A DNA stretch of 34,274 nt from a virus (lineage: Duplodnaviria > Heunggongvirae > Uroviricota > Caudoviricetes), in IMG/VR virus record IMGVR_UViG_2740892426_000003; one strand, written 5' to 3'. Both the position numbers and the translations under genes were made by a program. Below, piece after piece: positions 4,484 to 7,578 of this stretch. The notes below the pieces were generated by a model. The model searched no databases and was not told where the DNA came from. It was given only the letters and a program-made list of their open reading frames with translations. Numbering within the stretch: position 1 is the first letter of the stretch; each line of letters starts with the position of its first letter.

Positions 4484-4571
4484 TGCCAGTACCTTTATTC
4501 AGGTAATACTTACCCGTCGCACAGACACGTTGTTTATGCGTTGTGGTTGTGAGTCTTTTATTTACTGAGTG

Positions 4572-4802
4572 TTACGCGATTTTCTGCTTTTGCAGAAATT
4601 GCCCGCGTGTGGATAGCGGGATGTGTATCTTAGGATTCGGGCAACCGCTCGGTACCACTGTTCCCATCACGGTTTCCATTGCGATAAATGAAAACGAACA
4701 GTTAACGTTTTTGCACTGGTAATAGAGCTTACGTACCAGCGGTGACATATATTCGCTGCTGCGAATTATCGCCTTACCGTCGCAGTGTGGGCATTTCATC
4801 AT
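4572..4802 (-). CDS. ogr: Ogr/Delta-family zinc-finger late transcription activator
   Basis: MMKCPHCDGKAIIRSSEYMSPLVRKLYYQCKNVNCSFSF has the CxxC...CxxxxC zinc-finger of P2 Ogr. Start set at the ATG-ATG pair preceded by AAGGAGA; the ORF-track start at 4820 is probably an upstream overextension. Confidence 0.85.
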   Translation of the reverse strand: MMKCPHCDGKAIIRSSEYMSPLVRKLYYQCKNVNCSFSFIAMETVMGTVVPSGCPNPKIHIPLSTRGQFLQKQKIA

Positions 4803-4838
4803 GTCCTGTCTCCTTACCACTTTTAACTAACTGAAACA

Positions 4839-5045
4839 CTAACGCTTTTCGTTAACGGACTGACGAAATAGTGTGATGCCGTTCAAAAAAATGATTCTTG
4901 CCATGCTGGACATCGAACGGTTCTGATCCAGCGCTAATGCTTCCAGTTCCGCGATTTCAGCGGGGAGCAGGCGCATTGCCACCGGTTTGTTCGACATCAC
5001 CCCGCGAGGCGCTCTTGAGCGTAAGACGTTCTCATTTGTTTTCAT
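4839..5045 (-). CDS. small ribbon-helix-helix (CopG/Arc-like) DNA-binding protein, first gene of the leftward ogr-primase transcription unit
   Basis: 68-aa ORF 18 nt upstream of ogr. VAMRLLPAEIAELEALA...RSMSSMARIIF looks like an RHH beta-strand plus helices. Divergent from the HTH gene across an 80-bp control region. Start may be internal. Confidence 0.5.
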   Translation of the reverse strand: MKTNENVLRSRAPRGVMSNKPVAMRLLPAEIAELEALALDQNRSMSSMARIIFLNGITLFRQSVNEKR

Positions 5046-5125
5046 GGTGGTATATTGTGGTTATTAACATTACACAATCTATAATTCCCTCAATTGAGTG
5101 AATTGTCAATGGTAATTATATCCAA

Positions 5126-5461
5126 ATGAAAGAATTTGGCATCCGTTTGAAGGAAGAACGTATCCGACTTGGACTTGATCAAGACGGCTTTGGACAACTT
5201 GGGGGCGTGAAGAAAAACGCACAAAGCAACTATGAGAATGGGTTGCGCAAGCCGGACAGTGACTATCTTGCTGGCATAGCGGCAGCGGGAGTTGATGTTC
5301 TGTATGTTCTAACAGGCAACCGCACGCCTGTGGTTACGTTGTCCAGTAAAGAGAGTGTGTTGGTGGAAAACTATCGTTCTGCTACGCCAGAACACCAGTC
5401 CACCCTTGACACGGTTAGCGCTGCGCTTGCGCAACCGATGAATTGTCGAAAAGTACAATGA
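5126..5461 (+). CDS. XRE-family helix-turn-helix transcriptional regulator (possible prophage repressor)
   Basis: 111-aa ORF; N-terminal GIRLKEERIRLGLDQDGFGQLGGVKKNAQSNYENGLRKPDSDYLAGIAAAGVDVLYVLTG is a Cro/C1-type HTH. First gene of a three-gene plus-strand operon. Confidence 0.75.
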   Translation: MKEFGIRLKEERIRLGLDQDGFGQLGGVKKNAQSNYENGLRKPDSDYLAGIAAAGVDVLYVLTGNRTPVVTLSSKESVLVENYRSATPEHQSTLDTVSAALAQPMNCRKVQ

Positions 5462-5491
5462 TTTATTAAATTCAGCTTATTAGGAGTAATT

Positions 5492-6580
5492 ATGGCAAAT
5501 GTCGGCTTTTCTTTTGAGGGGGTGATGATTGAAAGAATTATTGCTCATCGAATCTTCCCAAGGTCTCCCGATAAGCAAATGGTTCCACCTAAGTTAAGTA
5601 ATCAGTTAATAACGTTAGAACAAGATGCTTTGGATGCACTACAGGTTCGTATAACAGAAGCCTTAGGTAATAAATCTCATGGCATTGAAATGTCTATCAC
5701 TGATACCGGTGATGATAGTTTTTTTGCACTGACAACGTCTGTACTACATGTTGAAGGCGAATCATTTATTAACGTATCTAAGCGATTGGCGCATAAGTTA
5801 ACAGAAGCTCAATATAGTGCGGGGAAGGTTTCCGGTGGTGTGTTAGTAATCATTACGGGAAAAATTGGTGAACAAGCCTGCCCATTCTTTGCTGTACTGC
5901 GTGCTGAAATGCAAAACGGATTTCGGACCAATGATACCCCAGAGAAAATAGCGATGGAGTATATTGCTGACTTATTACTTACACCAACTCAGCGGCTTTA
6001 TAAAATAGGAGTGTTGATTGAGTGTGAGTCAGGCCATGAATTGATTGATGGTCGTTGTGATACGCAATATTATCGTTCATTTTTATTTGATCACTTGATG
6101 ACATCGACGGAAACTAAAAATGCTGCGGGGTATTTTTACAGTGTTTTTCTTGGAATGGGGATCGAAAAATCCTCCAAGAAATTGACGCAGGATTTTTTTG
6201 AACATACTCGAAATTTCATTAATCAGGCTCCAGTTGATGAGGAAACTAAGTTTGATTTACACGAGTCATTACGTTCTGAACTGAGAAGTCAGAAAGCAAC
6301 TTTGAGTACCGCTTCGTTTGCTACGGAACATCTTCCTCAAGAATTACAGACGAGCTATCAGTCATTTATGGCTCAAAAAGGTTTTCCGCAGAATGCAGTG
6401 TCTAAAGATACTGATTATATTAAGAAAAAGCTTCGTCGTAGAAGTAAATTAGTGTTTACAAGCGATGTATGGATATCCATACCACCAGATCAAGTAAAAG
6501 AACTGGTACAGATTGAACAAACAGATGATGATGAGTCAACTACACTTAAAGTCAAAGGGCGGTTGAAAAGTCAAGAATGA
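5492..6580 (+). CDS. NA37/YejK (NdpA)-like nucleoid-associated-protein-family protein; candidate DNA-binding sensor or antitoxin component
   Basis: 362-aa ORF with RBS TAGGAG upstream. By-eye similarity to E. coli YejK recalled from memory: I..H.I near the N-terminus, a GG-hydrophobic stretch (SGGVLVIITG), FLGMG...DFF, and C-terminal F..KG...TL.VKG. Very AT-rich relative to flanking phage genes. Stop overlaps the next start (ATGA). Confidence 0.55.
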   Translation: MANVGFSFEGVMIERIIAHRIFPRSPDKQMVPPKLSNQLITLEQDALDALQVRITEALGNKSHGIEMSITDTGDDSFFALTTSVLHVEGESFINVSKRLAHKLTEAQYSAGKVSGGVLVIITGKIGEQACPFFAVLRAEMQNGFRTNDTPEKIAMEYIADLLLTPTQRLYKIGVLIECESGHELIDGRCDTQYYRSFLFDHLMTSTETKNAAGYFYSVFLGMGIEKSSKKLTQDFFEHTRNFINQAPVDEETKFDLHESLRSELRSQKATLSTASFATEHLPQELQTSYQSFMAQKGFPQNAVSKDTDYIKKKLRRRSKLVFTSDVWISIPPDQVKELVQIEQTDDDESTTLKVKGRLKSQE

Positions 6581-7578
6581 TGAGTATAGAGGATTTTAGA
6601 CGTTATCTGGTTGAAAACCATGCTGCTTATGAAGCATGGGGTAAACATATTGCGTCTGAAATCAATGCGGCTTTGATTGAACAACTTGGTGAAGGGGCCG
6701 CCCAGCTCTTCATCAAGGTACCACCCACTCCGAGAGTTAAAGGTATCGAGTCCGCATTAGGGAAGGTTGGTCGTAAAGGTTATAACAACCCTGTTCAGCA
6801 GATGACGGATCTCGTTGGCGTTCGTTTTGTCGTTTTACTTTCTGAAGATATTGAGACAATCTGTAAAATCATTCAGAATAATGAACAATGGATAGCTGTT
6901 GTTTCTAAAGATTATCAGGATGAAATAGAGGTAAACCCTAAACTATTTGATTATCAATCAAAGCATTTTGAAATAAGGCCAAAGATAAATAGCGTTATAT
7001 CGGGAGTTAATATTACAACTGATATGTGCTGTGAAGTACAAATTAGAACATTATTGCAGCATGCGTATGCAGAATTAGTTCATGATAGCGTTTATAAACC
7101 TGTTGGCCCCGTACCGAAAAAAGCGGAGCGCCAAATTGCGCGTAGTATGGCTTTGATGGAAACAACAGATGAATTATTTTGTAATACAATGCGGCTTTTA
7201 TGTGATACTAATAAACCAAGAAATGATTTTTTAAAGGAGTTAAAAGATTTTTATATAAATAAAATTGGGAGGCAGTATTTAAATCAGGAAGATAAAATAA
7301 ATTATTGTTTTTTAGATGAGTATAGGTCGTTTATACAAGAAGATCTTTTGACTAATCTAATCGACCTTCTTGATAAGAAAAAATATATATCATATAAAAT
7401 CCAACAAAGGGCTACTGCCAATCTTTTTTTTGCGCAGCCAGTGGTCATTTTTACTTACTGGCTGGCAATAAATGAAGACAGTAATAAATTACAGCAAGAA
7501 TGGCCGTTACCTGGATATTTGAACGAATTGAGAATGATTTTAAGTGATGTTGGTGTAAGTAGCGGTATTGGATATTAA
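6577..7578 (+). CDS. RelA/SpoT-homologue nucleotidyltransferase (small-alarmone-synthetase/toxSAS-like) with ~150-aa C-terminal extension
   Basis: 333-aa ORF. Synthetase-domain motifs are visible: PRVKGIESALGKVGRKG, TDLVGVRFVV, and CEVQIRTLLQHAYAE (the E-[IV]-Q-I-R-T...H...AE signature). C-terminal third is K/N-rich, AT-rich and unassigned. Translationally coupled to the upstream gene. Confidence 0.8.
   Translation: MMSIEDFRRYLVENHAAYEAWGKHIASEINAALIEQLGEGAAQLFIKVPPTPRVKGIESALGKVGRKGYNNPVQQMTDLVGVRFVVLLSEDIETICKIIQNNEQWIAVVSKDYQDEIEVNPKLFDYQSKHFEIRPKINSVISGVNITTDMCCEVQIRTLLQHAYAELVHDSVYKPVGPVPKKAERQIARSMALMETTDELFCNTMRLLCDTNKPRNDFLKELKDFYINKIGRQYLNQEDKINYCFLDEYRSFIQEDLLTNLIDLLDKKKYISYKIQQRATANLFFAQPVVIFTYWLAINEDSNKLQQEWPLPGYLNELRMILSDVGVSSGIGY

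Follow-up and report, generated by a model that had tools for sequence, protein, structure and literature searches.

Immunity switches of P2-family phages and the locus under study

Two immunity switches of P2-family phages are the C/Cox switch of phage P2 and the CI/Apl switch of phage 186. P2-like switches have two converging promoters; Cox represses the weak repressor promoter, Pc, whose transcript begins within cox, and the overlap between the two transcripts amounts to about 35 nt in P2 and to 82 nt in WPhi (PMC1904263). Equivalents of C and cox could not be identified in phages phiE202, phi52237, phiCTX and RSA1 (Nilsson et al. 2011), and in Burkholderia phages a ‘repressor’ has been annotated only (Lynch et al. 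2010). The present locus, which can be placed with several of these phages, is an 80-bp intergenic gap at positions 5046–5125 of a 34,274-nucleotide stretch of viral DNA (IMG/VR record IMGVR_UViG_2740892426_000003); the whole stretch is referred to below as the window. The gap sits between a gene for a helix–turn–helix (HTH) protein of the XRE type and a gene for an Arc-like ribbon–helix–helix (RHH) protein, which is the first gene of an ogr–primase early operon. The gap is very probably an immunity (lysis–lysogeny) switch. A literature search found no experimental study of a switch of this type.

An original prediction, made from the letters of the window, had described the gap as a repressor/anti-repressor switch analogous to P2 C/cox, built from an XRE-type HTH protein and an RHH protein. 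The HTH identity is confirmed by Pfam and PHROG, and the RHH identity is indicated by PHROG. The reading as a switch is supported by the HTH/RHH pair and by the annotated repressors of relatives, while the likeness to P2 C/cox proved to be functional only, the proteins not being homologues. The two genes are the following:

5126–5461, plus strand: XRE-type HTH gene, 111 aa, predicted repressor (Pfam HTH_3/HTH_31; PHROG transcriptional repressor families)
4839–5045, minus strand: Arc-like RHH gene (68 aa) heading the early (lytic) operon, candidate Cro/Cox analogue (PHROG 3431, Pfam RHH_5, synteny)

The DNA of positions 4500–5600 showed no similarity to sequenced phages, distant search mode included, and relatives were therefore sought through the proteins. 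A word-indexed protein search with the RHH protein returned 13 close relatives only, so the enteric set is small, with about seven distinct variants of the gap; tblastn added Burkholderia and Ralstonia phages, and 13 loci with a common gene order were aligned (alignment A3; L numbers denote individual loci). In tblastn, the RHH protein matched 64 phage records at 52–55% identity over 82–87% of its length, and the HTH protein matched 222 records at up to 62% identity. The same divergent RHH/HTH pair, with conserved synteny, is present in Burkholderia phages phiE202, phiX216, KS5 and Carl1 and in Ralstonia RSA1-like phages, including RsoM1USA.

The early promoter and the proposed operator palindrome

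A strong leftward early promoter, Pe, would drive RHH–ogr–primase, and its spacer is filled by a palindrome:

5103–5108, minus strand: Pe −35, consensus TTGACA, the core of ATTGTCAAT (promoter scan)
5081–5086, minus strand: Pe −10, AATTAT (promoter scan; TTGACA-17-AATTAT, 10/12)
5083–5104, unstranded: 22-bp palindrome AATTCCCTCAATTGAGTGAATT, with CAATTG as its centre, proposed operator of the HTH repressor

Pe is called by the scan in the window, phiE202 and L005 and is visible in all 13 aligned loci. The −35 position holds TTGACA or a close variant in all relatives, the equivalents of Pe being TTGACA-17-TATTCT in phiE202, TTGATT-17-AATAAT in L005, TTGCAT-17-TATTAT in KS5 and TTGACT-17-CATACT in Ralstonia phages.

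The palindrome is the strongest symmetric element of the region, with 10 of 11 pairs matched (P = 0.015, shuffles). It occurs once in the 34-kb window, where no further operator copies were found and the next best site has 6/20 mismatches; direct repeats longer than 6 nt were not found in 5000–5180. The dyad varies together with the repressor. Recognition helix GGVKKNAQSNYENG is common to six loci (the window, L004, L006, L018, L021 and L034). At the equivalent place in its Pe spacer, L034 has a perfect 20-mer, TTTCACTCAA–TTGAGTGAAA (TTTCACTCAATTGAGTGAAA), and L004 has ATTTCAC-N8-GTGAAAT, a symmetric A/T exchange relative to the window; the C..C and G..G positions are invariant among the dyads of loci sharing this helix. 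Other recognition helices go with other dyads in the Pe spacer: TTGCAG-N4-CTGCAA in L005, TAGGGAA-N4-TTTCCTA in L007, AGTGG-N8-CCACT in phiE202 and ATACGCACCGATCGGTGTGTAT in KS5 (P = 0.002).

The comparison of the window with L007 points in the same direction. The RHH proteins of the two loci are identical and the N-terminal halves of their HTH proteins are different; from the RHH gene to 5077 the two DNAs do not differ, and past that point, across Pe, the operator and the first 50 or so HTH codons, they are unrelated. The exchanged segment is a classical immunity cassette, and the palindrome lies inside it. The palindrome at 5083–5104 is thus predicted to be the operator of the HTH repressor, an assignment that we consider likely.

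At 30% GC, with no RNA structure signal and with a 6-bp inverted repeat of the kind expected by chance (see below), the gap might be taken for ordinary AT-rich intergenic DNA, in which the motif pattern would be a compositional accident without specific regulatory meaning. Such a reading is extremely improbable, given that the promoter hexamers, the position of the dyad and the TATAnT hexamer described below are kept in 13 loci, including phages of hosts with 63% GC, and that L034 has a perfect 20-bp palindrome.

The closest solved relatives of the HTH protein are ImmR and the 434 repressor, and its homologues in KS5 and Carl1 carry the annotation ‘repressor’ or ‘immunity repressor’. Pfam gave no match to Peptidase_S24, the LexA/S24-type cleavage domain, in the 111-aa protein, which we infer to be a short, non-cleavable immunity repressor. 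A perfect LexA-box-like CTGT-N8-ACAG (CTGTATGTTCTAACAG) is situated inside the HTH gene at 5300–5315; it coincides with the VLYVLTG codons and eight relatives lack it, and LexA control through this box was rejected, the box being probably a chance occurrence.

A further leftward promoter-like site was found upstream of Pe:

5115–5142, minus strand: ATGCCA-16-TATAAT (scan 10/12; also called in L034)

Its −35 is within the HTH coding sequence, and its occurrence is confined to loci of this immunity type. The site may be an early promoter in tandem with Pe, or it may simply result from the coding sequence.

The candidate repressor promoter

The original prediction had supposed divergent promoters. 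Between the Pe −35 and the HTH ATG there are only 17 nt, and the HTH start codon of L007 and KS5 reaches into that −35 or lies past it. Since this leaves no room for a back-to-back pair, the promoters must overlap or converge. Promoter prediction gives the leftward Pe and a rightward, head-on Pc, and the sequence offers a second rightward candidate:

5029–5034, plus strand: candidate Pc −35, TTCTCA, inside RHH codons 4–6 (promoter scan; 16-nt spacer)
5048–5056, plus strand: candidate Pc extended −10, TGgTATATT (scan; TG ahead of the hexamer)
5080–5085, plus strand: alternative −10, TATAAT, overlapping the Pe −10 (seen in the sequence; not called by the scan)

A promoter at the position of the candidate Pc is called independently in L034 and L005 (TTTTCA-16-TGgTATAGT). 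In L005, this site and Pe are the sole two promoter calls and face each other; consensus scans thus call head-on pairs in the window, L034 and L005. For phiE202 the scan accepts Pe alone, the TATACT there having no −35. The hexamer itself, TATAnT (TATATT, TATAGT or TATACT), is invariant in all 13 loci and always 5 nt away from the RHH start codon; on the RHH strand of alignment A3, TATA and the following C are invariant, with no gap before the ATG, across phages of gamma- and beta-proteobacteria, E. coli, Burkholderia and Ralstonia among them.

The repressor promoter could instead be the perfect TATAAT at 5080–5085. Its start would then lie near 5092, the two −10 elements would overlap, the promoters would be both overlapping and divergent, and the TATAYC beside the RHH gene would serve RHH binding or translation. 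The hexamer is perfect, L018, L021 (TATGAT), KS5 (GATAAT) and L004 (CATATT) have −10-like hexamers at the corresponding position, and an HTH protein bound at the palindrome would give autoregulation. The site, however, has neither a −35 within 16–18 nt nor a TG extension; hexamers of this kind are to be expected wherever the opposite strand has an AT-rich −10; and L005 (ATTATT) and L034 have no usable equivalent, while the Pc site is called in both. This arrangement seems doubtful. From the promoter calls and the conservation of TATAnT, we lean towards the head-on Pc as the promoter of the repressor gene, if only slightly.

The RHH protein, the leader block and the inverted repeat

The length of 80 bp assigned to the gap depends on the RHH gene starting at ATG 5045. 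In RefSeq/PGAP annotation the gene is shorter, encoding a 52-aa ‘hypothetical protein’ from a start at 4997, with which the gap would not have this length; in one genome an antisense open reading frame is called instead. The 68-aa form is favoured because the first 17 codons have more synonymous than non-synonymous changes (e.g., 8 vs 1 and 8 vs 3), as under purifying selection, because the alignment with the PHROG 3431 profile begins at residue 1, and because Burkholderia and Ralstonia homologues have Leu at the position of the alternative Met. On these grounds the true gene is the 68-aa form, with its start at 5045, and the gap keeps its originally predicted length. No recognisable Shine–Dalgarno sequence precedes the RHH or the HTH gene in enteric loci; Burkholderia RHH genes have GAAGGGAAG.

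The RHH protein matches PHROG 3431, ‘Arc-like repressor’, with E = 4e-24. The match to Pfam RHH_5 is marginal (16.4 bits, under the cut-off of 26), as is that to the uncharacterised structure PDB 2kke (E = 0.003). It can be aligned with Arc in strand–helix–helix register with 32% identity over 31 residues, although the hhalign score is not significant (E = 0.08). An AlphaFold2 monomer model, built from an 11-sequence alignment, consists of one long helix and is not interpretable (pLDDT 71, pTM 0.33). The protein had been proposed to be an anti-repressor; a Cro/Cox-like second repressor is a better description, a predicted role that we assign with reservation.

Two stretches of the gap were considered in connection with the binding of this protein:

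5060–5077, minus strand: early-leader block TTGTGTAATGTTAATAAC, about +1 to +17 of Pe, candidate RHH operator (alignment A3)
5054–5078, unstranded: inverted repeat ATTGTG-N13-CACAAT (ATTGTG 5054–5059, CACAAT 5073–5078), spanning the predicted start sites of Pc and Pe

The leader block has the family consensus TTGTG-YAA-KGTTAAY and is kept whatever the immunity type, Burkholderia phages included; in alignment A3 it appears as a conserved T.GTG.A....TAA beside the invariant TATA.C..ATG. The TATAnT hexamer may also be part of the RHH binding site.

The inverted repeat and the further ATTG/CAAT elements of the gap were at the centre of the original prediction, which placed them correctly: ATTGTG and CACAAT are 13 nt apart, CAATTG is at 5091–5096 and ATTGTCAAT at 5102–5110. 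A repeat search lengthens the arms of the inverted repeat to 9 nt at 89% complementarity. Perfect inverted repeats with 6-bp arms and a spacer of up to 20 nt are, however, common in sequence of this composition: one was observed against a mean of 1.05 in dinucleotide shuffles of the 30%-GC stretch (P = 0.54), and 27% of 80-bp tiles of the window contain one. The idea that the inverted repeat is a statistically special element was therefore rejected. A riboswitch, small RNA or terminator reading of the gap was also rejected: Rfam gave no family in the window or the gap region at E up to 1, and folding of both gap strands and of the inverted repeat was no better than that of shuffles (z about 0).

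The ATTG/CAAT tetramers are enriched in the gap (6 observed vs 1.9 expected, P = 0.004, top 0.1% of tiles), and every element named for them is present, which would suit the claim that the ATTGT(G)/CAAT elements over 5054–5110 form a single half-site family for the HTH and/or the RHH protein, controlling back-to-back divergent promoters. Their distribution among relatives makes this very unlikely. In L007, which has a swapped repressor module, the inverted repeat stays, with one change in the CACAAT arm, and it lies outside the immunity cassette; L004 and L034, which share the HTH helix of the window, have CATACT and GATACT, respectively, in place of the CACAAT arm, and L005 has no such repeat. 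The element ATTGTCAAT is the Pe −35, of which relatives keep the TTGACA part only. CAATTG is the centre of the longer palindrome, which conserves CTC..GAG and TTCAC..GTGAA and not ATTG, and the 17 nt available are too short for a back-to-back promoter. The elements thus differ in their evolution.

In the lineage of the window, the inverted repeat could still be the RHH operator, one RHH tetramer across both starts shutting Pc and Pe. It travels with the RHH gene rather than the HTH gene, it is located between the Pc −10 and the Pe +1, and its CACAA/TTGTG arm is within the block conserved as far as Burkholderia phages. Apart from its chance-level frequency, this assignment has against it that the CACAAT arm is lost in RHH orthologues of 75–82% identity with the same β-strand sequence and that the position of the ATTGTG arm is occupied in Burkholderia by the Shine–Dalgarno-like GAAGGGAAG. 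The subsites of Arc and Mnt are spaced roughly one turn apart, and the 19-bp centre-to-centre spacing of the inverted repeat is unlike that. We therefore regard the inverted repeat as an unlikely RHH operator; the leader block with the adjoining Pc −10 is preferred as the candidate.

Proposed mechanism

The sequence and the comparison of loci give the gene order, the consensus of Pe, the boundary of the cassette, the conserved TATAnT and, for the dyad, its position, uniqueness and co-variation; the remaining part of the mechanism is what we infer from them. A dimer of the 111-aa HTH protein would bind the palindrome at 5083–5104 and occlude Pe, whereby lysogeny would be maintained. The rightward Pc would transcribe the repressor gene and the cargo genes behind it. 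Located at the RHH start codon, Pc would fire head-on into Pe, the starts lying at about 5063 and about 5074 and the transcripts overlapping by about 12 nt. The footprints of RNA polymerase at the two promoters would overlap and exclude each other, so that an active Pe would shut Pc and repression of Pe would free it. On derepression, the RHH protein, in a Cro/Cox-like manner, would bind the conserved leader and the Pc −10 region (5046–5077) and lock Pc off.

Several points weigh against this scheme. Literature searches found no transcription-start, binding or genetic data for the phage of the window or for any relative. The Pc −35 matches only 4/6 in enteric loci, and none is recognisable in Burkholderia or Ralstonia phages, because of which the conserved TATAYC could be a protein site or a translation signal and not a −10; the perfect TATAAT at 5080–5085 is available as an alternative repressor promoter. 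In phiX216 and Carl1 the Pe spacer contains no dyad, and the palindromes of these phages lie upstream of the −35. The RHH fold is indicated by sequence profiles, the monomer model being uninformative, and the RHH operator is a candidate segment. Both the RHH and the HTH gene lack a Shine–Dalgarno sequence. With these points taken into account, the full explanation, namely an immunity switch of a P2-family prophage with an early region of the phiE202/KS5/RSA1 type and the Pe/Pc mechanism outlined above, appears reasonably likely.

Comparison with related and other phage switches

In phiE202, phi52237 and phiX216 (Tigrvirus), KS5 and Carl1 (Kisquinquevirus) and RSA1-like phages (Aresaunavirus), the genes have the same order as in the window: T-U-D, cargo and HTH, diverging from RHH, ogr, small open reading frames and the Toprim primase. 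The phiE202/KS5/RSA1 group and the window also share the Pe-like promoter, the leader block TTGTGYAAKGTTAAY and TATAYC beside the RHH ATG. Unlike this group, the window has an E. coli host, a guaA site, a much shorter early operon, a P4-type integrase and other cargo. By synteny, orthology and the shared non-coding signature, the window belongs to the phiE202/KS5/RSA1-type early region.

In plaque-isolated Ralstonia phage RsoM1USA (L023, 3161–4870), the XRE repressor gene is annotated as a remnant (‘similar to XRE family transcriptional regulator’), and insertion-sequence transposase genes lie between this remnant and the RHH gene. Locus L006 (3579–4210; Enterobacteriaceae metagenome-assembled genome UBA5654) lacks ogr and primase, and an in-frame stop makes its RHH gene a pseudogene; intact are the HTH gene, the operator/promoter region and a cargo set. 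It is a decayed prophage in which repressor and cargo have been retained.

P2 C/Cox and 186 CI/Apl resemble the window in having divergent repressor and early-regulator genes in a P2-family phage. They also resemble the prediction made for it, in which two repressors have different operators, converging promoters give transcripts that overlap, and a weak Pc lies at or within the first early gene; the overlap predicted for the window, about 12 nt, is shorter than those of P2 (about 35 nt) and WPhi (82 nt). They differ in their proteins, which are C or CI as against an XRE/434-type HTH repressor and a winged-helix/HTH Cox or Apl as against an RHH protein. The operator of P2 C is a pair of direct repeats, whereas that predicted in the window is a single palindrome. 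The switch of the window would work like that of P2 or 186 and is a member of neither.

The cI–cro switches of lambda and 434 share with the window a 434-like HTH domain, a palindromic operator over the early promoter (with binding predicted in the window) and accessory defence-type genes behind the repressor gene; in lambda, rexAB is co-transcribed with cI. Unlike them, the window has no S24 domain, one palindrome in place of three shared operators, an RHH protein in place of an HTH Cro and promoters predicted to be head-on, not back-to-back. Arc and Mnt of P22 (immI) are small RHH-type phage repressors, as the protein of the window is predicted to be. Arc/Mnt, however, are situated in a secondary immunity region controlling an antirepressor, while the RHH gene of the window heads the main early operon of a P2-like phage.

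As an element, the gap is ordinary, being an E. coli member of a known switch type that has not been dissected experimentally. If all parts of the scheme held jointly, it would exemplify a third, ancient class of P2-family switch beside C/Cox and CI/Apl, characterised by a 434-like repressor acting at a single palindrome in the Pe spacer, a head-on collision of Pe and Pc over about 12 nt, an RHH operator doubling as an invariant Pc −10 and a maintenance promoter powering a fast-swapping slot of anti-phage cargo. This combination is put forward tentatively.

Prophage setting and the cargo slot

The window is a whole P2-like prophage. It runs from a P4-type integrase (Arm-DNA-bind_3) through AlpA, a DUF7673 gene, the Toprim primase and ogr to the RHH gene; beyond the gap follow the HTH gene, an NA37-like gene, a RelA_SpoT gene and then gpD, gpU, the tape measure gene and other tail and head genes. 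Among 5426 complete E. coli genomes, just 4 have a near-identical copy of the prophage adjoining guaA. Two further features of this setting are:

4572–4820, minus strand: Ogr/Delta zinc-finger late activator, second gene of the early operon (Pfam Ogr_Delta, 1.2e-19)
5492–7578, plus strand: cargo genes, NA37-like and then a RelA_SpoT-domain protein (Pfam; directly downstream of the repressor gene)

The early operon of the window consists of RHH, ogr, primase, DUF7673 and AlpA. The AlpA-family excisionase-like gene (1204–1470) is apart from the RHH gene, and excision is probably left to this separate protein. A weak terminator-like hairpin with 8 pairs, 3 of them GC, and a poor T-run is present on the minus strand at 4821–4857, at the junction of the RHH gene and ogr; it could attenuate Pe read-through into ogr.

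The original prediction had tied the cargo genes to the lysogenic state. They lie directly behind the repressor gene with no terminator-like site between, an arrangement that makes expression together with the repressor in lysogens plausible. From the HTH stop to the next gene there are 30 nt in the window and 2–49 nt in relatives, with no promoter or terminator call. Because of these short gaps and the absence of such calls, co-transcription of the cargo with the repressor gene is plausible.

PADLOC assigns the RelA_SpoT protein to the candidate system PDC-S33 (1e-13) and finds no known defence family for the NA37-like protein. The contents of the slot between the repressor gene and gpD vary. 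The NA37 and RelA_SpoT genes of the window (5492–7578) have as their counterparts DUF6037, NA37 and hypothetical proteins in L002/L003 (10006–13009); WYL, ThsB_TIR and Peptidase_C14 (caspase-like) in L033 (239–2075); and a 205-aa protein and DUF2971 in L034 (277–2040), where an Abi_alpha-domain gene lies just beyond. NA37-like proteins recur in two different cargo sets. The slot has the look of a defence hotspot that the repressor promoter would express; for the K139-like relatives of P2, a hotspot of defence genes next to the repressor has been reported (PMC9122126).

Significance

The analysis provides concrete coordinates of the proposed operator, Pe and Pc for a switch type that is widespread in Burkholderia, Ralstonia and enteric P2-family phages and that the 2011 survey of P2-like regulatory regions (Nilsson et al.) could not identify. 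Knowledge of repressor and operator is needed to make lytic derivatives of temperate phages, as proposed for Burkholderia phages by Lynch et al. The added interest is modest and lies in the deeply conserved Pc-like hexamer and in a cargo slot that is probably driven by Pc. If Pc does drive the cargo, the variable slot would be expressed specifically in lysogens, which is the expected logic for prophage-borne defence and matches the K139-like hotspot.

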